From Propionibacterium freudenreichii subsp. freudenreichii (GTDB lineage Bacteria > Actinomycetota > Actinomycetes > Propionibacteriales > Propionibacteriaceae), in NCBI RefSeq assembly GCF_000940845.1, contig NZ_CP010341.1, positions 2,310,001-2,342,000 on the forward strand: DNA of 32,000 nt. The letters run 5' to 3'. The translations under genes were made by a program, and so were the position numbers. The first letter of the stretch is position 1, and each line of letters begins with the position of its first letter. The notes beneath the pieces were generated by a model. That model saw only the letters and a list, made by a program, of their open reading frames with translations, searched no databases and had not been told where the DNA came from. Positions 6,821-22,377 of the stretch are shown here, in pieces.

Positions 6821-9800
6821 ATGTCCACCAGCCAGCGCCAGCACGACCCGCACGAGAAGCCCGCGCACGAGCATGAGCAGCACAAGGCCGCCGACGGGAG
6901 CGGCTCCGGCTCCCCGCTGCTGCGCATGGGCAGCTGGCTGCGACGCGGCAAGGCCTCGCGCGACACCCGCCAGCTGTTCCTGGCCGGCGGACGCGACGCC
7001 GACGCCTTCTACCGGCAGCGCTGGAGCTACGACAAGGTGGTGCGCTCCACCCATGGCGTGAACTGCACCGGCTCCTGCTCGTGGAAGGTGTACGTCAAGG
7101 ACGGCATCATCAGCTGGGAGACCCAGGAGACCGACTACCCCACCACCGGCCCCGACCTGCCCGAGTACGAGCCCCGCGGCTGCCCCCGCGGCGCAGCCTT
7201 CAGCTGGTACGAGTACTCGCCCAACCGCGTGAAGCACCCCTATGTGCGCTCGGCGCTGCTCGACCCCTACCGCGAGGCCCGCGAACGCCTGGGCGACCCG
7301 GTGCTGGCCTGGGCGTCGATCACCGACGACCCCGCCATCTCGCGCAGCTACAAGTCGGCGCGCGGGCACGGCGGCATGGTGCGCGTCAGCTGGGAGGAGG
7401 CCACCGAGATCATCGCCGCGTCCTATGTGCACACCATCAAGGCCTACGGGCCCGACCGCATCGCCGGGTTCTCGGTGATCCCGGCGATGAGCATGATCTC
7501 CTACGCCGCCGGATCGCGCTTCCACGAGCTGCTGGGCGCGCCGATGCTGAGCTTCTACGACTGGTACGCCGACCTGCCGCCGGCCAGCCCGCAGGTGTTC
7601 GGCGACCAGACCGACGTGCCCGAATCGGGCGACTGGTTCAACGCGCAGTACCTGATCATGTGGGGCTCCAATGTGCCGCTCACCCGCACACCCGACGCGC
7701 ACTTCATGACCGAGGCGCGCTACCACGGCCAGAAGGTCGTGGCGGTGAGCCCCGACTTCGCCGACAACACCAAGTTCGCCGACGACTGGCTGCGCGTGGC
7801 CCCCGGCACGGACGCCGCGCTGGCCCAGGCCATGGGCCATGTGATCCTGTCCGAGTTCCATGTCAGGCGCCGCGAGCCGTTCTTCCTCGATTACATGCGC
7901 CGCTATTCCGACGCGCCCTTCCTCATTGAGCTGGACGACGCCGCCACCGACGCCCCCGCCTCAGGCAGCCCCGCCACCAACGCGGCCACACAGGTCGTCC
8001 CCGGCAAGTTCCTGACCGCCGACAAGATGCCGGCCGGCACCACCGAACGCACCGACAACCAGGCGTTCCGCCCGCTGGTGCTCGACGCCGACGGCACCGT
8101 GAAGGACCCCGGCGGCACGCTCGCCGACCACTTCGGCGACCAGGGCGCCGGGCACTGGAACCTCACCCTCGACGGCGTCGCCCCGGTGCTGTCGCTGATG
8201 GACACCGACGACTGGACGCCGGTGGAGGTGACCCTGCCGCGCTTCGACCTGCCCACCCAGCCCGGCCAGGCCAGCCTCGGCGGCGGCACCGTGCGCCGCG
8301 GCGTGCCGGCGCGTCGGATCAATGGCCGCCTGGTGACCACCGTCTTCGACCTGCTGCTGGCCCAGTACGCCGTGGGACGCGAGGGCCTGCCCGGCCAGTG
8401 GCCCACCGGCTACGACGACGCCTCCACGCCGGGCACCCCCGCCTGGCAGGAGGAACTCACCGGCGTCGCCAGCGGTGCCGCCATCAAGATCGGCCGCGAA
8501 TTCGCCCTCAATGCCCTGGAGTCGAAGGGCCGGTCGATGATCCTCATGGGCGCCGGCGTCAACCACTACTTCCACGCCGACCTCATCTACCGCACCTTCC
8601 TGGCGCTCACCACGATGTGCGCCACCCAGGGCGTCAACGGCGGTGGCTGGGCCCATTACGTGGGCCAGGAGAAGGTGCGTCCGGTCACCGGGTTCTCGAA
8701 CTACGCGTTCGCCCTCGACTGGCAGCGCCCGGCCCGGCAGATGATCGCCACCGGCTGGTTCTACCTCACCACCGACCAGTGGCGCTACGACGGGGCACGC
8801 GCCGACGCGATGGCCAACCCGCTGGGAGGGGCGTCGTTCGCCGGCAAGACGACGGCCGACTGCCTGGTGGAATCGGCCCAGCGCGGCTGGATGCCCAGCT
8901 ACCCCACCTTCGACCGTTCGCCCCTCGAGTTGGGACGCCAGGCCCACGAGGCCGGCATGGCGCCGGGTGACTATGTGTCCGGCGAACTACGCGCCGGGCG
9001 CCTGCACTTCGCCGCCGAGGATCCCGACGCACCCGAGAACATGCCCCGCGTGCTGGCCAATTGGCGCACTAACCTGCTCGGCTCGTCGGCCAAGGGCACC
9101 GAGTTCTTCCTGCGCCACATGCTGGGCGCCGACAACGACGTGCAGGCCAGCGAGCTCGACGCCGACCATCGTCCCGCCTCGATGACCTGGCGCGACGAGG
9201 CACCCGCCGGCAAGCTCGACCTGATGTGGACCGCCGACTTCCGCAACACCTCCACCACCCTGCACTCCGACGTGGTGCTGCCGGCGGCCACCTGGTACGA
9301 GAAGCACGACCTGTCGAGCACCGACATGCATCCCTTCGTGCACTCGTTCAACGCGGCGGTCGACCCGCCGTGGGAGGCCCGCACCGACTTCCAGACCTTC
9401 CAGGAGCTGGCGCATCTCATCTCACGCATGGCGGCCACCCACCTGGGCACCCAGACCGACGCGCTGGCGGTGGCGCTCACCCACGATTCGCCCGACGAGC
9501 TGGCCACCCCCGGTGGCGTCGTGGACGCCGAGCGGGGCTGGGTGCCGGGCGTCACCATGCCCAGGATCGTGGCTGTGGAGCGCGACTACACCCAGATCGG
9601 CAACAAGTTCGACACGCTCGGCCCGCTGCTGGCCAGCGCCGGCATGACCACCAAGACGGTCGCCTTCCATCCCGACCGCGAGCTCGACGAGCTCGGCGAG
9701 CTGAACGGACGCGCCGACCAGGGCCGCGGCGCCGGGGCCGGCAGGCCCCTGGTCGACACCGACATCAAGGCCGCCGACGCCGTGCTCAAGCTGTCGGGCA

Positions 9801-10256
9801 CCACCAACGGACGCCTCGCCACCCAGGGCTTCCGCACCCTGGAGGCGCGCACCGGCACCCAGTTGGCCGACCTGGCCGCCGCCGACGAGGACAAGCGGAT
9901 CAGCTTCGCCGACACCGCCGTGCAGCCGCGCTCGGTGATCACCTCACCGGAATGGTCGGGTTCGGAACATGGCGGACGACGCTATTCGGCATTCGTGCAG
10001 AATGTGGAACGCAACAAGCCGTGGCATACGCTCACCGGGCGTCCGCAATTCTATCTCGACCATGATTGGATGATCGACCTGGGCGAAGCCCTGCCGATAT
10101 TCCGTCCACCGCTGGACATGGCCCATATCTATGGTGGGCAGGCGCTCGGCGAGGCACGTAGCACCGCCACGGGGGAAACCCAGGTGGCCGTGCGATATCT
10201 CACCCCGCACAACAAATGGGCCATCCATTCCCAGTACTACGACAATCCCTATATGC
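6821..10256 (+). pseudogene. narG: narG 5' fragment (nitrate reductase alpha subunit), truncated by an IS insertion
   Basis: GGAGG precedes ATG 6821. Contains the FS0 motif HGVNCTGSCSW and Mo-bisMGD enzyme motifs. After 10256 the frame reads 10 IS-encoded codons to a stop at 10288. Confidence 0.93.
10249..10256. repeat. Target-site duplication, left copy (CTATATGC)
   Basis: Identical 8-mer at 11684-11691, directly abutting the two IS inverted repeats. Confidence 0.9.
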
Positions 10257-11683
10257 GGCTCTTCACGAACGAGGGTGTAGCGGGTTGAGCGTGTCGGTGG
10301 CCGGGTAGGGGTCGAGGTCTCCCTGAGGATGGAAGTTCTCACACTCGCCATCTGCCGGAAGACCTCGACGTGTCACACCCTACTTTCACTACACCTTGCC
10401 TGACCACGTTCTGCGGTCTCGACGAGCTCGGCCTGGAGGCTGTCGGGCAGCGTCTGGACCCGGATCGGGCGGTGATCGAGTGCCGTGTCGTGGAGCCGGA
10501 CCGGTGGTGCCGCGAGTGTGGATGCGAGGGCGCCCCGCGCGACACGGTGATCCGTCGGCTCGCGCATGAGCCATTCGGGCATCGGCCCACGACCCTGCTG
10601 ATCCGGGTCCGGCGCTACAAATGCTGCGGGTGTGGGCGGGTCTGGCGGCAAGACACCACGGCCGCCGCGCCGGTACGGGCGAAGATCTCCCGCGGTGGGT
10701 TGGCGTGGGGGCTGGCGGGCTTGGTCCTCGATCATCTCTCGGTCACGCGTGTCGCGGCAGGGCTGGGGGTGTCCTGGTCCGCCGCGAACGACGCGATCCT
10801 CGCCGAGGGCCGCCGGCGGCTGATCGATGACCCGGCGCGGTTCGAGGGCGTGACCACGATCGGCGTCGACGAGCACGTGTGGCGACACACCCGCCACGGC
10901 GACACGTACGTGACCGTGATCATCGACCTGACCCCGGTGCGCGACAAGACCGGCCCGGCACGGCTGCTGGACATGGTCGCCGGACGCTCGAAAGCCGTGT
11001 TCAAGACCTGGCTCGCCGCCAGACCGAAGCCCTGGCGAGAGGGGATCGAGGTCGTCGCCATGGACGGATTCACCGGGTTCAAGACCGCCGCCGCCGAAGA
11101 ACTGCCCGACGCGGCCCCGGTCATGGATCCGTTCCACGTGATCCGGCTCGCCGGTGACGCGCTGGAGAACTGCCGACGCCGGGTACAGCACGACGTCTTC
11201 GGCCGGCGGGGCATGAAGGGCGATCCGCTCTACCAGGCCAGACGGACCCTGCTCACCGGTGCCGGTCTGCTCACCGACAAGCAGCAGGCGCGGCTAGATG
11301 CCCTGTTCGCCGACGACAGGCACGTCGAGGTCGAAGCGACGTGGGGCATCTACCAAGACATGATCACCGCCTACCGGGACAAGGACCGCGGCCTGGGCAG
11401 ATTCTTCCTCGCGCACACGATCGACAAGATCAGCGCCAGCGTCCCGGAGCAGCTCGTCGAGATCCGCAAACTCGCCCGCACCCTCACACAGCGCGCTTCG
11501 GACGTGCTCGGCTACTTCGACCGCCCCGGCACCAGCAACGGCCCCACCGAAGCGATCAACGGCCGACTCGAACACCTCCGCGGCACGGCCCTCGGCTTCC
11601 GCAACCTCAGCCACTACATCGCTCGGTCGCTGCTCGAAGCCGGCGGATTCAGACCCGCGCTACACCCTCGTTCGTGAAGAGCC
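10257..11683 (+). mobile_element. ISL3-family insertion sequence (1,427 bp) inside narG
   Basis: Perfect 25-bp terminal IRs: GGCTCTTCACGAACGAGGGTGTAGC at 10257-10281 and its exact reverse complement at 11659-11683. It carries a single transposase ORF and an 8-bp TSD, as is typical for ISL3. Confidence 0.92.
10370..11677 (+). CDS. ISL3-family transposase
   Basis: 435 aa. The N-terminal zinc-finger-like region has two Cys pairs (CRECGC and CCGCG). ISL3-type core motifs are present (IGVDEHVW, VAMDGFTGFK, DPFHVI, SNGPTEAINGRLE). The stop codon lies inside IRR. Confidence 0.9.
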   Translation: MSHPTFTTPCLTTFCGLDELGLEAVGQRLDPDRAVIECRVVEPDRWCRECGCEGAPRDTVIRRLAHEPFGHRPTTLLIRVRRYKCCGCGRVWRQDTTAAAPVRAKISRGGLAWGLAGLVLDHLSVTRVAAGLGVSWSAANDAILAEGRRRLIDDPARFEGVTTIGVDEHVWRHTRHGDTYVTVIIDLTPVRDKTGPARLLDMVAGRSKAVFKTWLAARPKPWREGIEVVAMDGFTGFKTAAAEELPDAAPVMDPFHVIRLAGDALENCRRRVQHDVFGRRGMKGDPLYQARRTLLTGAGLLTDKQQARLDALFADDRHVEVEATWGIYQDMITAYRDKDRGLGRFFLAHTIDKISASVPEQLVEIRKLARTLTQRASDVLGYFDRPGTSNGPTEAINGRLEHLRGTALGFRNLSHYIARSLLEAGGFRPALHPRS

Positions 11684-12071
11684 CTATATGCTCACGCTGG
11701 GCCGGGGCGGGCAGACCATCTGGATGAGCCCCGCCGACGCGGAGCGCATCGGCGTGCGCGACAACGAATGGGTCGAGGCGCACAACCGCAACGGGGTGGT
11801 GTCGGCGCGGGCGATCGTCTCGCACCGCATTCCGGCCGGCACGGTGTTCATGCACCACGCCCAGGAACGCACGATGAACACCCCGCTCAACGAGAGCACC
11901 GGAAAGCGCGGCGGAATCCATAATTCGCTGACCCGCATCATGATCAAGCCGACGCATTTGATCGGCGGATATGCCCAGTTGTCATATTCGTTCAATTACT
12001 ACGGCCCCACCGGAAACCAGCGCGACGAGGTCACCCTCATTCGCCGCCGCGGCCAGGAGGTGCAGTTCTGA
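11684..12071 (+). pseudogene. narG: narG 3' fragment (C-terminal domain); the first 8 bp are the right TSD copy
   Basis: Encodes (Y)MLTLGRGGQTIWMSPADAERIGVRDNEWVEAHNRNG..GGIHNSLTRIMIKPTHLIGGYAQLSYSFNYYGPTG, collinear with the conserved NarG C-terminus. Its stop shares one nucleotide with the narH start. Confidence 0.92.
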
Positions 12072-13582: not shown

Positions 13583-14406
13583 TGGGCGAGTTCGTGGGCC
13601 TTCCCAGCGTGCCGGTGGCCGACACCGTGACGCTTGACGACGCCCCGCGCCGCATCGCGCGGATGGCCTGTTCGCTGCTGCTCGACTATCCCGACGAGGC
13701 GCTCGCCACCACCCTGGGTGCGGTGCGCGCCGAAGTGGGGGCGCTGCCGGCCCCGGTGCGCGAGGAGATCGACGCCTTCTGCGCGGCCGCCGAGCAGTTG
13801 GGCGTCCGGGCGCTGCAGGAACACTATGTGGAGGTGTTCGACCAGCGGCGACGCTGCGCGCTGTCCCTGACCTATTTCACCCACGGCGACACCCGTGGCC
13901 GCGGGCAGGCGCTGTTGGCGTTCCGTGAGGCGATGCGCCGGGCCGGTTTCAGCCAGGTCCGCGAGGAGCTGCCCGACTACCTGCCGATCGTGCTCGAGCT
14001 GTGCGCGCTGGACGACACCGGCACCGGCGAGGCGCTGTTGGCCGCCAACCGGGAGGGGCTGGAGGTGATCCGCACGGCACTGCGGTCGGCGCACTCGCCC
14101 TATGCCCACCTGCTGGAGGCCATCGTGCGCACCCTGCCCGCCGCCAGCGACGAGACCATGGCCGCCTATCGCCGCCTCATCGCCCAGGGCCCGCCCACCG
14201 AGTTGGTGGGCGTGGGGCGTCCCACCCTGCATGAGCCCCTCGAGCCCAACACCCGAGAGCCCGGGCCCCACGAACACGGCCCCCACGAACCCGGCCCCCA
14301 CGAACCCGGCCCCCACGAGCCCAACACCCACGAACCCGGGCTCCACGCGTCCAATCCGCACGCACCCAACCCGCACGCGCCCAGCCCCCACGGAAGAGGG
14401 AAGTGA
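13582..14406 (+). CDS. narJ: Nitrate reductase assembly chaperone NarJ with a C-terminal His/Pro repeat tail
   Basis: Has a NarJ/TorD-like core (YVEVFD, LPDYLPIVLE) in the position between narH and narI. Its last ~55 aa are pentapeptide repeats. Confidence 0.85.
   Translation: MGEFVGLPSVPVADTVTLDDAPRRIARMACSLLLDYPDEALATTLGAVRAEVGALPAPVREEIDAFCAAAEQLGVRALQEHYVEVFDQRRRCALSLTYFTHGDTRGRGQALLAFREAMRRAGFSQVREELPDYLPIVLELCALDDTGTGEALLAANREGLEVIRTALRSAHSPYAHLLEAIVRTLPAASDETMAAYRRLIAQGPPTELVGVGRPTLHEPLEPNTREPGPHEHGPHEPGPHEPGPHEPNTHEPGLHASNPHAPNPHAPSPHGRGK
14263..14394 (+). repeat. 15-bp tandem repeat x ~8.5 (consensus GGCCCCCACGAACCC), in frame within the narJ 3' end
   Basis: The units start at 14263, 14278, 14293, 14308, 14323, 14338, 14353, 14368 and 14383. 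Together they encode GPHEH GPHEP GPHEP GPHEP NTHEP GLHAS NPHAP NPHAP SPH. Confidence 0.9.
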
Positions 14407-15131
14407 GCACCATGTCACTGGTTGAAATGTTGTTGTGGGTGGCCCTGCCCTATGTGTCGATCGTGCTGCTGGTCACCGGATTGGTGTGGCGCTACCGCAC
14501 CGACCAGTTCGGTTGGACCAGCCGGTCCAGCGAGTGGAATGAGTCGGCGCTGCTGCGGTGGAGTTCGCCGATGTTCCACCTGGGCATCCTGTGCGTGGCC
14601 GCCGGCCATGTGGTGGGGCTGGCGATCCCCGAGTCGTGGACGGGCGCGCTGGGCGTGTCCGAGCAGATGTACCACCTGGGCGCCACCGTGCTCGGGTCCC
14701 TGGCGGCGCTGGCCACCCTGATCGGCCTGGGCGGACTGCTCTACCGGCGCATCGTGGTGAAGTCGGTGCGACTGGCCACCACGCGCATGGACATCGTCAC
14801 CTATGTGCTGATGTGCATTCCGATCATCCTGGGCACGATCGCCACCGTGAGCACGCAGGTGCTGGGCGATCCGGGCTACAACTACCGCGAGACGATCTCG
14901 GTGTGGTTCCGCTCGATCCCCACCTTCAACCCGCAACCCGAGTTGATGGCCACCGTGCCGTTGGCGTTCCAGCTGCACATCGTGGCGGGCATGCTGTTGT
15001 TCTGCGTGTGGCCGTTCACGCGCCTGGTGCACGTGCTGTCAGCACCGATCGGCTATCCGACGCGTCCCTATGTGGTCTACCGCTCCCGCAAGGGCGAGGT
15101 GGCCGCCACCCCGAAGCCGCGCGGCTGGTGA
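14403..15131 (+). CDS. narI: Nitrate reductase gamma subunit NarI (dihaem cytochrome b)
   Basis: 5-TM protein with conserved His residues (SSPMFHLGILCVAAGH, FQLHIVAGML, TRLVH). GTG 14403 overlaps the narJ stop (GTGA); the alternative start is ATG 14412. Confidence 0.9.
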   Translation: MSTMSLVEMLLWVALPYVSIVLLVTGLVWRYRTDQFGWTSRSSEWNESALLRWSSPMFHLGILCVAAGHVVGLAIPESWTGALGVSEQMYHLGATVLGSLAALATLIGLGGLLYRRIVVKSVRLATTRMDIVTYVLMCIPIILGTIATVSTQVLGDPGYNYRETISVWFRSIPTFNPQPELMATVPLAFQLHIVAGMLLFCVWPFTRLVHVLSAPIGYPTRPYVVYRSRKGEVAATPKPRGW

Positions 15132-16375
15132 CCGTGCAGGCGGCCGGCACTGCGTCCACCACGGGCACTGCGGCTCCAATGGGCACTGCGTCCAAAGTCG
15201 GCGCTGCGTCTCCAGTGGGCACGGTGTCCAAAGCCGGCACCGCGTCCAGGACCGGCACTGTGTCCAAGACCGGCGCTGCGTCCACTGACAACGCTGCGTC
15301 CACAGCGCACACCGGCGACATGGCGTCCACCACGCTCCAACTGGACACCATCACGCACCTGACCGGCGCGCAGTACACGCTGCTGGCACGCATCGGCGCG
15401 CATGCCTCGCCGGTCACCGTCACCGAGCTGGCCCACGAGCTGGGCCGCCACGTCAGCTCGGTGCGCGAGACGCTCGACGCGCTGCTGCGGATCGGGCTGG
15501 TCACCTCGCAGCGGCTCCCGGCGTCGGGACGCGGACGCCCGGCCCTGGGCTATTCGGCACACGTGCCCGCCGGGCCCGTGGGTGCACCCCAGCTGTTCGA
15601 CCAGGTCTGCGCAGCCTTCCTCGACTACCTGCGCGCCAACGTCCCCGATCCGCTGCGCGCCGCCCGCCGGGTAGGCTGCGACTGGGGCGGACGTGCCCTG
15701 ACGCTGATGAAGGTGCCCGACCACCACGATTTCTCGCTGCCCGAATCGCAGTTCCCGCTGGCCGACCACCTCGAGAAGATCCGGATGTTCCTCAACATCT
15801 TCGGGTTCGGGGTGCATGTCCACCCGCAGCAGGCGACCACCCTGGTGCTCACCGCCATCCCGTTCGGCCAGCCCGTGGGCCGTCCAGCAGGTGGCGACGG
15901 CGACGAACCCGGCACCCCGGAGCCCGATCCCCTGGCGCTGGAGTTGCGTCGCGGCATGGTCGAGCGTGCACTTGAGCTCACTGCCTGCGACGATGTGGTC
16001 GCACGCTATCTACCCGGACCCGGCATGGAGGCCGAGCTGGTGCTGACACGCACCACCGGGCAGCACGATTCCCAATCCCCCGAACAGAGCGAGAAGCCCA
16101 TGACGCACATCCGCTACTTCGCCGCCGCCGCCGAAGCTGCCGGCACCGATTCCGAGCAGATCGGCCTCGACGAGATCGGCGCGCAGGAGATCAGCGTCGA
16201 CAAGCACCCCACCACGCTGGGCGAGCTCGTCGACCACCTTGCCGGACGCCACGCCGGGCTCGCCAAGGTGCTCCGGGTGTCGAGTTTCCTGGTGAACGAG
16301 CGCCCCGCCGACCGTGATGCGCCGCTGCCCGCGGGTGCGGTGGTCGACGTGCTGCCGCCCTTCGCCGGCGGCTGA
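15128..16375 (+). CDS. Uninterrupted ORF: winged-helix transcriptional regulator (same position as ArnR of the Corynebacterium nar locus) fused in frame to MoaD
   Basis: Start candidates are GTG 15128 (GTGA overlap with the narI stop), GTG 15134 and ATG 15320. The wHTH is VTVTELAHELGRHVSSVRETLDALLRIGLV (~15410-15500). The regulator part has three Cys. I checked codon by codon across 16040-16102 and found no stop before the MoaD module. Track positions 14558-15127 of the same frame are out-of-frame overlap with narI. Confidence 0.55.
   Translation: MTVQAAGTASTTGTAAPMGTASKVGAASPVGTVSKAGTASRTGTVSKTGAASTDNAASTAHTGDMASTTLQLDTITHLTGAQYTLLARIGAHASPVTVTELAHELGRHVSSVRETLDALLRIGLVTSQRLPASGRGRPALGYSAHVPAGPVGAPQLFDQVCAAFLDYLRANVPDPLRAARRVGCDWGGRALTLMKVPDHHDFSLPESQFPLADHLEKIRMFLNIFGFGVHVHPQQATTLVLTAIPFGQPVGRPAGGDGDEPGTPEPDPLALELRRGMVERALELTACDDVVARYLPGPGMEAELVLTRTTGQHDSQSPEQSEKPMTHIRYFAAAAEAAGTDSEQIGLDEIGAQEISVDKHPTTLGELVDHLAGRHAGLAKVLRVSSFLVNERPADRDAPLPAGAVVDVLPPFAGG
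15146..15307 (+). repeat. 18-bp tandem repeat x 9 (consensus GGCACTGCGTCCAnnnnn)
   Basis: Contiguous units start every 18 bp from 15146 to 15290. In the frame of the downstream ORF they encode GTASTT GTAAPM GTASKV GAASPV GTVSKA GTASRT GTVSKT GAASTD NAASTA. Confidence 0.9.
16100..16375 (+). CDS. moaD: Molybdopterin synthase sulfur-carrier subunit MoaD (module, or an independently initiated protein)
   Basis: MTHIRYFAAAAEAAG...VVDVLPPFAGG: 91 aa of ThiS/MoaD beta-grasp type with the obligatory C-terminal GG, directly upstream of moaE. Only a weak RBS (GAGAAG) precedes ATG 16100. Confidence 0.8.
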   Translation: MTHIRYFAAAAEAAGTDSEQIGLDEIGAQEISVDKHPTTLGELVDHLAGRHAGLAKVLRVSSFLVNERPADRDAPLPAGAVVDVLPPFAGG

Positions 16376-16476: not shown

Positions 16477-16896
16477 ATGACTGACATCCGCACCGGCATC
16501 ACCTCCGAACCGCTCGATGCGGCCGCGATCACGCAGGCCGCGGCAGACCCCCGCTGCGGGGCGCTGGTGACCTTCGCGGGGGTGGTGCGCAACCACGACG
16601 CCGGCACGCAGGTGCAGGCCATCGACTACTCGGCGCACCCCAGCGCCGAACGGGTGTTGGCACGCATTGCCGCCGGCATCGGCGAGCGTGACGGACTGGG
16701 CCGCATCGAGGCCTGGCACCGCATCGGACACCTCGAGGTGGGCGATACGGCGATGGTGGTGGTCGTGGCCGCCCCACACCGCGGACCCGCCTTCGCCGCG
16801 GTCACCGACCTGGTCGACCAGGTGAAGGCCGAGCTGCCGGTGTGGAAGAACCAACAGCTTGCCGACGGCACGCACAGCTGGTCGGGAATCGCCTGA
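16477..16896 (+). CDS. moaE: Molybdopterin synthase catalytic subunit MoaE
   Basis: GGGAGGA precedes ATG 16477. MoaE motifs are present (GALVTFAGVVRN, VVVAAPHR, PVWK). Confidence 0.9.
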   Translation: MTDIRTGITSEPLDAAAITQAAADPRCGALVTFAGVVRNHDAGTQVQAIDYSAHPSAERVLARIAAGIGERDGLGRIEAWHRIGHLEVGDTAMVVVVAAPHRGPAFAAVTDLVDQVKAELPVWKNQQLADGTHSWSGIA

Positions 16897-17771
16897 TGGG
16901 CGTGCGAATCCCCTTGTCAACCCCGGTTGAGGATGTGGACGCCGACGATCCGCGCCTGGCCCGGCATCGTCGCAACTGGTTGGTGGCGGGCATCGGACCC
17001 GCCGGCCAGGCCCGCATGCGGGCGGCCCGCGTGCTCGTGGTGGGCGCGGGCGGACTGGGCTCACCGGTGCTGCTGTACCTCGCCGCGGCCGGCGTCGGCA
17101 CGCTGGGTGTGTGCGACTCCGATGTGGTGGAGGTGACCAACCTGGCCCGCCAGCTGCTGCACGGCGAGGCCGATGTGGGCATGGCCAAGCCCGAGTCGGC
17201 GGCGCGACGGCTCGGCGCGCTGGACGCCTCGGTGCGCGTCGAACAATTCGGCAATGTCACCCGCGATTTCCTCGACGCCCATGGCGCCGAGTGGGACCTC
17301 GTGATCGACTGCACCGACAACTTCGCGGCCAAGTACCTGGTGGCCGATTGGTGTGCCGACAGCGGCGTGCCGTTGGTGTGGGGCACCGTGGTGTCGATGG
17401 GCTTCCAGGTGTCGGTGTTCTGGTCGCGGCCGCCGGCGGGGGTGCCGGCCACCACCCTGCGCATGGTCTACCCACACGTGCCGCCGCCGGGCACGACGCC
17501 CGCGAGCCCGCAGGTGGGCGTGCTGGGTTCGGTGGTGGGGCAGGCCGGCACCGCCATGGCCACCGAGGCCACCAAGCTCATCACCGGGGTGGGCGAGCCC
17601 TTGATCGGGCGCGCACTCGTGGCGGACGCGGCGCGCAACCGCTACAGCGTGCTGACCTTCGCCGCCGGCCCCGATGGGTCTGATAGTTCGGCCGACAGAT
17701 CCGGCAGACCCGACAGATTCGACGGGCCCGACAGCTCTGCCCGCCATGATGCGACGGGAGACACACCATGA
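16896..17771 (+). CDS. moeB: MoaD adenylyltransferase MoeB (ThiF/E1-like), no rhodanese domain
   Basis: ATG 16896 shares one nucleotide with the moaE stop (TGATG). Contains the Rossmann motif VLVVGAGGLGSP, RQLLH and DCTDNFAAKYL. The region equivalent to the CxxC/active-site Cys reads TTLRMVYPHVPPPGTTPASPQVGVLG. Confidence 0.85.
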   Translation: MGVRIPLSTPVEDVDADDPRLARHRRNWLVAGIGPAGQARMRAARVLVVGAGGLGSPVLLYLAAAGVGTLGVCDSDVVEVTNLARQLLHGEADVGMAKPESAARRLGALDASVRVEQFGNVTRDFLDAHGAEWDLVIDCTDNFAAKYLVADWCADSGVPLVWGTVVSMGFQVSVFWSRPPAGVPATTLRMVYPHVPPPGTTPASPQVGVLGSVVGQAGTAMATEATKLITGVGEPLIGRALVADAARNRYSVLTFAAGPDGSDSSADRSGRPDRFDGPDSSARHDATGDTP

Positions 17772-20927: not shown

Positions 20928-21112
20928 GGCCTCATCGTGGCACGTCGGCCCTGCTTGCGGGGCGCGTCCCCACCCGCTTGCCGTCCCCGGCCGTTCCGAC
21001 GCCATGAGTCGGCACATAGGTGACACGTCCAGCCCCAAACCCGCCGGGCAAGCCCGTTTGAAGCGCCCTGAGTTTGTTGGAGACTCCTGACCTTGGAAAC
21101 GAGGATGGGGTT

Positions 21113-21457
21113 ATGCCGAAGGAACTGGCGAATGGGAAGCCGACGACGCGTCGCTACTCGGTCGAGGAGAAGGCCGCCGCGGTGCGGATGGTGAGGACGC
21201 TGCGCGCGGAGCTGGGCGTCACGCAGGGGACGGTGCAGCGGGTCGCGACGCAGCTCGGTTACGGGGTCGAGTCCGTGCGGATGTGGGTCAAGCAGGCCGA
21301 CGTCGACGACGGTGTCGTCCCCGGTGTGAGCTCGGCGGAGGAGCAGCGGGTGAAAGAGCTCGAGCAAGAGAATCGGGAGCTGCGCCGGGCCAACGAGGTG
21401 CTGAAACGGGCGGCGTCTTTCTTCGGGGCGGAGCTCGACCGCCACTACCGGAAGTAG
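21113..21457 (+). CDS. IS3 transposase OrfA (HTH / leucine-zipper part)
   Basis: MPKELANGKPTTRRYSVEEKAAAVRMV.. ..ELEQENRELRRANEVLKRAASFFGAELD, a typical IS3 OrfA ending. Confidence 0.88.
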   Translation: MPKELANGKPTTRRYSVEEKAAAVRMVRTLRAELGVTQGTVQRVATQLGYGVESVRMWVKQADVDDGVVPGVSSAEEQRVKELEQENRELRRANEVLKRAASFFGAELDRHYRK

Positions 21458-22377
21458 TCGCGTTCATCGACGCGAACAAGGACGACGTCGTGGACGGTCG
21501 CCGGCTCGGAGTCGAGCTCATCTGCAGACTGTTGCAGGTGGCTCCGAGCAGCTACTACGCCGCCAAGACCCGTGCGCCCTCTGCCCGTGCGCTGCGTGAC
21601 GAGGAACTGATCCCGCAGCTGGTCGAGATCTGGGAGGCCAACTACCGCGTCTACGGGGTCCGCAAGCTCTGGAAGGCTGCCCGGCGTGGGGGCATCATGA
21701 TCGGCCGCGACCAGACTGCGAGGCTGATGCGCGTCGCAGGGATCGAAGGTGCGAGGCGGTCGAAGCGGGTGAAGACCACGCGGCCGGACCCGGCGTCGTC
21801 GCGGCACCCGGACCTGGTCAAGCGGGAGTTCACCGCGACGGCACCGAACCGGCTCTGGGTGACCGATCTGACATTCGTGCCCACCTGGGCTGGCGTCGCC
21901 TACGTCTGCTTCATCATCGACGCGTTCTCCCGGATGATCGTGGGGTGGCGGGTCGCGTCACATATGCGCACCGAGATGGTCCTCGACGCGATCGAGATGG
22001 CGCGCTGGTCCCGAGGCGCCCACCATGAGGATCTGCGGTGTCACAGCGACGCGGGCTGTCAATTCACATCGATTCGCTACGGCGAACGCCTCGCAGAGAT
22101 CGGTGCGACACCCTCGATCGGGACCGTCGGCGATTCGTATGACAACGCCCTGGCCGAGACGGTGAACGGCTACTACAAGGCCGAGTTGGTTCGCGGGCCC
22201 ACCCGCTCGGGACCGTGGAAGACGGTCGAGGATCTCGAGCTCGCGACGCTCGGCTGGGTGCACTGGCACAACACGCAGCGCCTCCACGGATACCTCGGAG
22301 ACGTCCCACCCGCCGAGTTCGAGAACGCGTTCTATGCTGTCCCCAACGACAGCAATCTGCTGATCGGAATCAAATAG
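21283..22377 (+). CDS. IS3 transposase OrfB (DDE catalytic part); open -1 frame, presumably expressed as an OrfAB fusion by -1 frameshifting near 21400-21455
   Basis: DD(35)E signature: WVTDLTF, HSDAGCQFTS, YDNALAETVNGYYKAE. The frame is -1 relative to orfA and overlaps it. The coordinates give the extent of the open frame, not a proven start. Confidence 0.8.
   Translation: MGQAGRRRRRCRPRCELGGGAAGERARARESGAAPGQRGAETGGVFLRGGARPPLPEVVAFIDANKDDVVDGRRLGVELICRLLQVAPSSYYAAKTRAPSARALRDEELIPQLVEIWEANYRVYGVRKLWKAARRGGIMIGRDQTARLMRVAGIEGARRSKRVKTTRPDPASSRHPDLVKREFTATAPNRLWVTDLTFVPTWAGVAYVCFIIDAFSRMIVGWRVASHMRTEMVLDAIEMARWSRGAHHEDLRCHSDAGCQFTSIRYGERLAEIGATPSIGTVGDSYDNALAETVNGYYKAELVRGPTRSGPWKTVEDLELATLGWVHWHNTQRLHGYLGDVPPAEFENAFYAVPNDSNLLIGIK

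Follow-up and report, generated by a model that had tools for sequence, protein, structure and literature searches.

A conserved fusion of an ArnR/SufR-like regulator with MoaD follows the nitrate reductase genes of Propionibacterium freudenreichii and related actinobacteria

We analyzed a gene of Propionibacterium freudenreichii subsp. freudenreichii in which a regulator of the winged helix-turn-helix (wHTH) type is joined in one reading frame to MoaD, a sulfur carrier of molybdenum cofactor (Moco) synthesis. The gene lies in a 32,000-nucleotide stretch of contig NZ_CP010341.1 (positions 2,310,001 to 2,342,000, forward strand), here called the window, whose own coordinates are used throughout. 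Each half has described relatives. ArnR of Corynebacterium glutamicum is a [4Fe-4S], nitric oxide-responsive repressor of narKGHJI and hmp, and its sensory domain is related in fold to Bet3/TRAPPC3 (PMC12343034). SufR-like regulators of the COG2345 family carry a recognition-helix His/Arg pair and a 'GRP' AT-hook, as described in a SufR cryo-EM preprint in which 5 of 326 COG2345 representatives lack the three Cys (bioRxiv 10.64898/2025.12.26.696629).

MoaD, in turn, is familiar as a free protein of ~9 kDa. It also occurs in MoaD-MoaE fusions (MoaX of Mycobacterium tuberculosis; a JAMM-cleaved protein in Deinococcus), where MoaD is N-terminal and cleavage after its GG is required. These resemble the present gene in linking MoaD covalently to a second protein encoded at the locus, and differ in that MoaD is C-terminal in the regulator fusion, where no cleavage would be needed. 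Couplings of molybdenum or Moco status to gene expression are known as well, in ModE and the Moco riboswitch. C-terminal sulfur-carrier fusions have been described with MoaD on aldehyde:ferredoxin oxidoreductase (Azoarcus) and ThiS on sulfite reductase (actinobacteria) (Iyer, Burroughs and Aravind 2006; PMC1779556); there too a sulfur-carrier beta-grasp sits at the C-terminus of a larger protein with its GG free, but the partner is an enzyme, not a transcription factor. That beta-grasp survey contains no occurrence of HTH, wHTH or 'winged' and mentions no HTH fusion, and MoaD is mentioned in neither the SufR/COG2345 preprint nor the ArnR paper. An earlier note on this DNA, made from the sequence alone, knew of no described regulator-MoaD fusion, and our literature search likewise found no paper describing one. 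Databases already list these proteins, though the names given to them are inconsistent.

The frame of the fusion gene is continuous, with no stop codon between the regulator and MoaD modules of 15128-16375. In the 415-aa reading the junction letters are SPEQSEKP-MTHIRYF, the C-terminus is LPPFAGG and there are three Cys in all; Pfam places MarR/HTH at aa 77-135 and ThiS/MoaD at aa 351-415, and NCBIfam moaD spans aa 327-415. Elsewhere, residue numbers refer to the 351-aa form that starts at ATG 15320. The gene is laid out as follows:

15128 to 16375, + strand: fusion gene in its longest reading, 415 aa, from the list of open reading frames (ORFs); stop TGA at 16373-16375
15144 to 15307, + strand: 18-bp tandem repeat of about nine units, in frame (GTASxx hexapeptides), from Tandem Repeats Finder (TRF) and by eye
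15320 to 15559, + strand: wHTH with H44 and R49 in the recognition helix, from Pfam MarR/HTH and the secondary structure of an AlphaFold2 (AF2) model
15527 to 15541, + strand: GRGRP wing motif (G70-R-G-R-P74), the 'GRP AT-hook' of SufR-like regulators, from alignments
15581 to 15706, + strand: two long helices, aa 88-129, the dimerization helix in ArnR/SufR models, from AF2
15707 to 16054, + strand: predicted Bet3/TRAPPC3-like sensor domain without iron-sulfur (Fe-S) ligands, aa 130-245, from Foldseek and the ligand columns
16055 to 16099, + strand: flexible linker (..TTGQHDSQSPEQSEKP), with predicted local distance difference test (pLDDT) scores < 50 at aa 248-257
16100 to 16102, + strand: internal ATG that encodes the first MoaD residue; its ribosome-binding site is weak
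16100 to 16375, + strand: MoaD beta-grasp domain, 91 aa, ending LPPFAGG and then a stop, from Pfam ThiS and NCBIfam moaD

Because the window has a G+C content of 69% and the fusion frame is open already from 14543, inside narI, the open frame is by itself weak evidence, and comparison with other genomes decides. A scan of species-representative genomes yielded 46 species-level loci from Schaalia, Pauljensenia, Actinomyces, Actinobaculum, Buchananella and Propionibacterium. Regulator and MoaD share one frame and one ORF in 43 of them, which makes the fusion more than chance; one of the remaining three loci is interrupted by a contig end and two hold the regulator only. The junction is identical among all P. 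freudenreichii cluster members inspected. A protein search with the 351-aa query returned ~60 clusters of 300-350 aa at 33-57% identity, with HTH and ThiS both present. The regulator-MoaD fusion is therefore genuine and conserved across many Actinomycetaceae and Propionibacteriaceae, and the earlier note's central observation, a regulator that runs without a stop into MoaD, is borne out by the sequence, the ORF list, Pfam and the related loci.

The surroundings are conserved too. Gene order in nearly all loci is (moaA-)narK-narG-narH-narJ-narI, fusion, moaE, then moeB and/or moeA-moaC, with mog nearby on the opposite strand in many. The fusion directly follows narI in the window and ~40 loci; almost every fused locus has moaE 3' of it, and most have moeB as well. 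The immediate neighbors in the window are:

14403 to 15131, + strand: narI (Pfam Nitrate_red_gam, E 3e-85), directly 5' of the fusion gene
16477 to 16896, + strand: moaE, the large subunit of molybdopterin (MPT) synthase and partner of MoaD (Pfam MoaE, E 1.4e-34)
16842 to 17771, + strand: moeB/ThiF-family adenylyltransferase, which activates MoaD (Pfam ThiF, E 3.2e-55)

No rhodanese domain was found in the window's moeB/ThiF-family protein. Apart from MoaD, the window encodes a full Moco set, which comprises modABC, mog, mobA, moaA, moaC, moaE, moeA and moeB. Judged by coordinates and by identity to the window, two loci titled Xylanimonas cellulosilytica strain 352_XCEL (L012) and Sanguibacter keddieii strain 250_SKED (L021) fall with those of Schaalia/Pauljensenia, and their organism labels look wrong.

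The C-terminal module matches MoaD by several measures. Pfam ThiS (PF02597) scores 41.1 bits against a cutoff of 22.5. NCBIfam TIGR01682 (moaD) is the best-scoring model, yet its scores, 38.4 bits when the whole protein is used and 45 bits when only the domain is, stay below the equivalog-level cutoff of 66.15. By profile, the closest solved relatives are the mycobacterial MoaD2 structures 6jc0/6jbz (E 1.5e-18), and Foldseek aligns the beta-grasp of the AF2 model to 6jbz_B/6jc0_A at a target-normalized TM-score (TMt) of 0.84-0.85 and to 1fm0_D at 0.85. VLPP..GG, including G350 and G351, is invariant in 46 sequences. The module thus shares with MoaD of E. coli (1FM0) and mycobacterial MoaD2 (6JC0/6JBZ) the beta-grasp, the C-terminal GG and adjoining moaE and moeB genes, with VDVLPPFAGG as in 6jc0/6jbz; it differs from free MoaD in being the C-terminal domain of a predicted DNA-binding protein of 351-415 aa. 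The earlier note had called it a canonical 91-aa MoaD ending in GG. Its identity and its GG hold, with the correction that it has a ~10-residue loop insertion relative to most homologues. The same note's point that a C-terminal MoaD leaves the GG exposed is correct as a matter of position, LPPFAGG being followed directly by TGA. On sequence grounds, the C-terminal third of the fusion is the MoaD of the locus.

No other gene in view supplies one. A MoaD-domain hidden Markov model run on six-frame ORFs found no second MoaD/ThiS ORF in the window or the loci (mostly ~20 kb), and the best 120 of 2958 matches to the MoaD domain of the window included no free MoaD from P. freudenreichii. Queried with the MoaD domains of Schaalia and of the window, databases gave truncated calls of the fusion gene itself, in Schaalia-like sequences, or MoaDs of other genera. 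The closest free 91-aa match is a MoaD-like ORF in another locus (L052, 1034-1309; P0419), 73% identical to the window's MoaD including the loop insertion; it has no regulator upstream and ends VDVHPRRADG, with no GG, and probably represents a remnant in decay, from a related organism.

The regulator half belongs with ArnR and SufR. The AF2 model of the fusion (pLDDT 84; predicted TM-score, pTM, 0.60) comprises a wHTH at aa 1-80, long helices at 88-129, an alpha/beta region at 147-244, a disordered linker at 248-257 and the beta-grasp at 262-351. The Pfam MarR match (PF01047; 27.3 bits against a cutoff of 24.6) is marginal, a generic wHTH signal that is uninformative as an assignment. More specific are H44 and R49, 96-100% conserved both in the fused clade and in 105 relatives bearing a Cys-Cys-His-Cys (CCHC) set, and GRGRP, which is invariant in our alignments and 99-100% conserved in the same relatives. 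Helices H88-107 and H111-129 are modeled with pLDDT > 90, and their G119 and W122 are conserved family-wide. In the sensor half, Foldseek matches Bet3/TRAPPC3 structures (2j3r, 1wc9, 1sz7, 6aq3) over ~170 columns at TMt ~0.5. Neither sequence profile nor Foldseek found a SufR or ArnR structure in the Protein Data Bank; matches were generic wHTH proteins and Bet3/TRAPPC3. The N-terminal two thirds of the fusion are thus a predicted dimeric regulator with a wHTH, a GRGRP AT-hook, long helices and a Bet3-like sensor.

Sequence comparison ties this architecture to nar-linked regulators, with Corynebacterium homologues as proxies for C. glutamicum ArnR. The profile search retrieved the Corynebacterium ArnR-type proteins P0188 and P0162 at E ~1e-15 to 1e-16, and Corynebacterium members lie beside narGHJI. 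BLASTP gave 34% identity over 130 aa (E 1e-14) to an ArnR-type protein of Corynebacterium gerontici, a member with Cys179/Cys193/His196/Cys222 that sits after narGHJI-modABC. The earlier note had likened the gene to ArnR by position; the analogy extends further, to profile homology with these regulators and to the Bet3/TRAPPC3 fold. The module is homologous to ArnR, shares its wHTH, GRGRP wing, long helix and Bet3/TRAPPC3-like sensor, and its gene lies just 3' of narKGHJI. With SufR/COG2345 it shares the domain plan, the recognition-helix His/Arg and the 'GRP' AT-hook.

The cluster ligands are where it departs. An exhaustive profile search with regulator-only sequences returned 1571 homologues, mostly of 220-260 aa, and 105 of 132 aligned representatives carry C-x13-C-x2-H-x~28-C, in agreement with the published ArnR Cys179/193/223 and a conserved His. 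At these columns, where relatives have Cys, Cys, His and Cys, the window has I180 (15857-15859), L207 (15938-15940), R210 (15947-15949) and A238 (16031-16033). The fused clade reads (C/x)/L/R/x there, 'VCxxHxG' having changed to 'ALELRRG'. The earlier note had pointed to three Cys in the regulator; the count is exact, but as family cluster ligands they fail, being unconserved and off the ligand columns, and an Fe-S cluster on them is ruled out by that misalignment. Since I/L/R/A replaces C/C/H/C, the regulator half is by sequence an ArnR/SufR-like (COG2345) homologue and not an Fe-S ArnR, and no cluster is expected. The fusion differs from ArnR further in its C-terminal MoaD and in clade-specific VPDH, H150, K153 and R155, and from SufR/COG2345 as a rare cluster-less member that is fused to MoaD and tied to nar/moa rather than suf genes. 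The residues conserved only in this clade (VPDH 132-135, H150, K153, R155, R211) would form an altered site, possibly anion-binding. The nearest unfused relatives (for example P0053, P0060, P0062 and P0063) have lost the ligand set as well, and this loss is therefore not linked to fusion. In Trueperella pecoris (L049, 6539-8726), a CCHC-bearing regulator of the family is divergent from moaA in a Moco/mod cluster that lacks a nar operon within 8 kb, and the family's link to Moco genes is hence wider than ArnR's known nar/hmp targets.

The junction itself bears on how MoaD is made. Codons aligned to ATG 16100 are TCG, ACG, CCG or GCG in most Schaalia, Pauljensenia and Actinomyces loci, and among 44 fused loci 26 lack any ATG, GTG or TTG within -8 to +4 codons of the junction. 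Twelve, the window included, have a start codon with a weak Shine-Dalgarno (SD) match; in the remaining six the SD of the start codon is -7 kcal/mol or stronger. Internal initiation cannot be the general source of MoaD, given that so many fused loci offer no start codon at the junction. Most junctions having no start and the loci having no second moaD, the fusion protein is probably the working sulfur carrier. MoaD being C-terminal, its GG tail would be free, so that the full-length protein could itself be a MoeB substrate, with cleavage and internal initiation unneeded.

We favor, at a probability of roughly 0.6, a joint reading in which the locus carries a conserved bifunctional gene: an ArnR/SufR-like regulator that has lost its Fe-S ligands, joined to the locus's own MoaD, with the full-length protein acting as the working MoaD. 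The full-length fusion would be activated by MoeB and would dock on MoaE as the small subunit, while the regulator half would still bind DNA at the nar/moa locus. More speculatively, two MoaD domains would be tethered to one DNA-binding dimer, and docking on MoaE2/MoeB2 or GG chemistry could modulate DNA binding. Carried to its end, this idea would have MoaD replace the lost Fe-S cluster as the input of an ArnR-type regulator, with docking (MoaE2/MoeB2) or the state of the GG (free, adenylated or thiocarboxylated) switching DNA binding, so that nar and Moco transcription follows molybdopterin flux. We consider that version unlikely, and a tether that couples nar/moa transcription to cofactor synthesis, close to what the earlier note proposed, is speculative. 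Should it hold, its logic would be that of ModE and the Moco riboswitch, with expression following cofactor supply, through an unrelated fold and mechanism. An Rfam scan of the window gave neither a Moco riboswitch nor any other RNA element in the vicinity of the gene, its sole match being an ALIL pseudoknot of an IS3-type element.

Several observations weigh against the bifunctional reading. narG in the window is broken by an insertion sequence (IS), so that in this strain the system is partly in decay. A within-genome comparison in 14 genomes found no operator motif common to the narK promoter and the fusion's own promoter; TAATT patches are ~100-fold enriched 5' of narK relative to coding DNA, which, as an intergenic-versus-coding comparison, is a lead only. 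Fused and unfused forms stand side by side in a rough tree, which fits a near-neutral, easily reversed fusion. The search for moaD covered the window and the loci, and a divergent second moaD elsewhere in the genome is possible. Lastly, an internal start codon is present in the window and 17 other loci, so a minor free MoaD species is possible.

The strongest alternative, which we regard as possible though clearly less probable than a bifunctional gene, is a passive 'Rosetta-stone' fusion: loss of a stop joined two co-transcribed neighbors, each half works on its own and no regulatory information passes through the tether. A split locus speaks for it. The earlier note had set the fusion against a stop separating the two genes in relatives, and the orthologue check found separation in a minority, with 43 of 46 loci fused. 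A metagenomic locus (L048) encodes, in the same place and the same frame, a 279-aa regulator, one in-frame TGA, a strong SD before an ATG and a 78-aa moaD, and is thus one in-frame stop away from fusion. In L050, moaA lies between regulator and moaD; Acidipropionibacterium virtanenii has the order narI-regulator-moaA-moaD-moaE. L048 and L050 point to how the fusion arose rather than to its refutation: with L048 split by a single TGA, stop-codon loss between adjacent arnR-like and moaD genes probably created it, and the simplest history is such a loss, possibly more than once or with reversals. Fused and unfused forms interleave in the rough neighbor-joining tree, and fusions of the Propionibacterium clade (L001, L003, L004) retain an AGGAG-type SD and a GTG inside the linker. 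Linkers vary in length and sequence between clades and are predicted to be disordered, and the loss of Fe-S ligands extends to the unfused relatives named above. Set against a passive fusion is its persistence across two families and > 40 species, when a single point mutation could reverse it. Schaalia-clade loci, moreover, have completely lost the internal start and SD and share a short, conserved linker (NPKPL); this suggests that the fused state is maintained.

A second alternative, improbable in our estimation, is that separate synthesis from ATG 16100 supplies MoaD, the long ORF being incidental. The ATG stands exactly at the first MoaD residue, its SD duplex (-5.5 kcal/mol) is slightly stronger than the background mean (-3.9 +/- 2.8), and strong SDs occur at the same place in L001-L004. 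That duplex nevertheless lies within one standard deviation of background, while six neighboring genes (narG, narH, narJ, narI, moaE, moeA) have -8.7 to -13.9 kcal/mol. The earlier note's judgment that the ribosome-binding site is weak therefore stands, but its option of MoaD arising solely from this ATG is unlikely as a general mechanism, given the many fused loci without a start codon near the junction and a frame that has stayed open through hundreds of millions of years of divergence.

Still less do we expect the MoaD domain to be purely regulatory, a sensor with the catalytic MoaD encoded elsewhere. The moaD search covered the window and the loci, and the Moco cluster of Trueperella pecoris has no ThiS gene in view, so moaD can lie apart. 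The invariant VLPPFAGG end is nonetheless that of mycobacterial MoaD2, the fusion occupies the slot that moaD holds in the split loci, right before moaE, and the best 120 of 2958 matches include no free P. freudenreichii MoaD.

We give little credence to the idea that the fusion is a precursor from which a protease cutting the linker releases free MoaD and free regulator. The linker is predicted to be disordered, and MoaD-MoaE proteins are known to be cleaved (PMC8832034). Cleavage of MoaD-MoaE serves to expose the GG, however, and the GG of the regulator-MoaD fusion is already free; no JAMM/MPN or other protease gene is present in the window or conserved in the loci, and linker sequences are unconserved between clades.

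A sequencing or assembly error, or a strain-specific pseudogene, for which one could cite only the disrupted narG in the same window, is as good as eliminated by 43 independent species-level loci and by the identical junction in all inspected P. freudenreichii cluster members.

At the 5' end of the fusion gene, GTG 15128 overlaps the narI stop (TGA 15129-15131) as GTGA and is the annotated start of the cluster member P0366 (415 aa). The earlier note had begun the gene there; the open frame to TGA 16373-16375 holds at 415 aa, but ATG 15320 is the likelier start. Codons 15128-15319 hold a tandem repeat without counterpart in homologues, so the conserved protein probably begins at ATG 15320 in the 351-aa form. 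TRF detects the repeat with period 18/36 across 15144-15285, and two more degenerate units, up to 15307, were recognized by eye. This 18-bp repeat of P. freudenreichii is not present in homologues from other species, and its copy number varies between strains (P0366 with 415 aa vs P0368 with 403 aa, a difference of 12 aa or 36 bp). It is either a low-complexity N-terminal tail or a 5' leader. No SD match was found at the candidate starts 15128, 15179 and 15320 (-1.8 to -2.5 kcal/mol), so that the gene may rely on translational coupling through the GTGA overlap or on leaderless initiation.

In loci of the Schaalia clade, a G+C-rich hairpin with a T-run follows narI (L009, 9690-9900, and equivalents in L008 and L037), then an A/T-rich stretch (for example TTAGTAAC), then the fusion. 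By eye the hairpin is terminator-like, and the fusion gene begins 300-400 bp further on. Hairpin, T-run and A/T-rich stretch together suggest that the fusion gene has its own promoter; it seems to come first in a unit of its own that includes moaE and moeB, and may regulate itself.

Two mobile elements mark the window. narG (6821-12071) is split by an intact ISL3-family IS at 10251-11689, whose transposase ORF spans 10370-11677 and whose 32-nt terminal inverted repeats (10251-10282 and 11658-11689) are 94% complementary; the two parts of narG abut in all ~40 related loci. With narG so split, this strain is probably negative for nitrate reductase, in keeping with known differences among P. freudenreichii strains in nitrate reduction (PMC4437456), for which that paper reports a deletion and a nonsense mutation as causes, not this insertion. 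Just 3' of the Moco genes lies an IS3-type element (21074-21546), with an HTH_Tnp_1 ORF at 21074-21457 and the ALIL frameshift pseudoknot (RF01497) at 21412-21546.

The finding carries a caution for annotation: a single protein may be named a MarR regulator, a MoaD/ThiS protein or a hypothetical protein. The ~60 clusters bear names such as 'MoaD/ThiS family protein', 'MarR family transcriptional regulator' and 'ArsR family transcriptional regulator/m...', and an unfused regulator has been named MoaD. The latter, a 246-aa protein of Schaalia vaccimaxillae (P0078 in L045) with no MoaD domain and no nar genes near, is called 'molybdenum cofactor biosynthesis protein MoaD' in RefSeq, a name apparently carried over from fused homologues.

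Schaalia and Actinomyces are major oral nitrate reducers. P. freudenreichii strains differ in nitrate reduction, a trait by which dairy and probiotic strains are selected (PMC4437456). The fused clade defines a cluster-less branch of the newly recognized SufR/ArnR family. Even if the fusion is passive, it would provide a clean 'Rosetta-stone' link between this regulator family and Moco and nitrate metabolism. If the full-length protein is the working MoaD, it would be a natural ubiquitin-like sulfur carrier that operates while tethered to a DNA-binding dimer and, if the tether is regulatory, a transcription factor would itself be a substrate of a sulfur relay.

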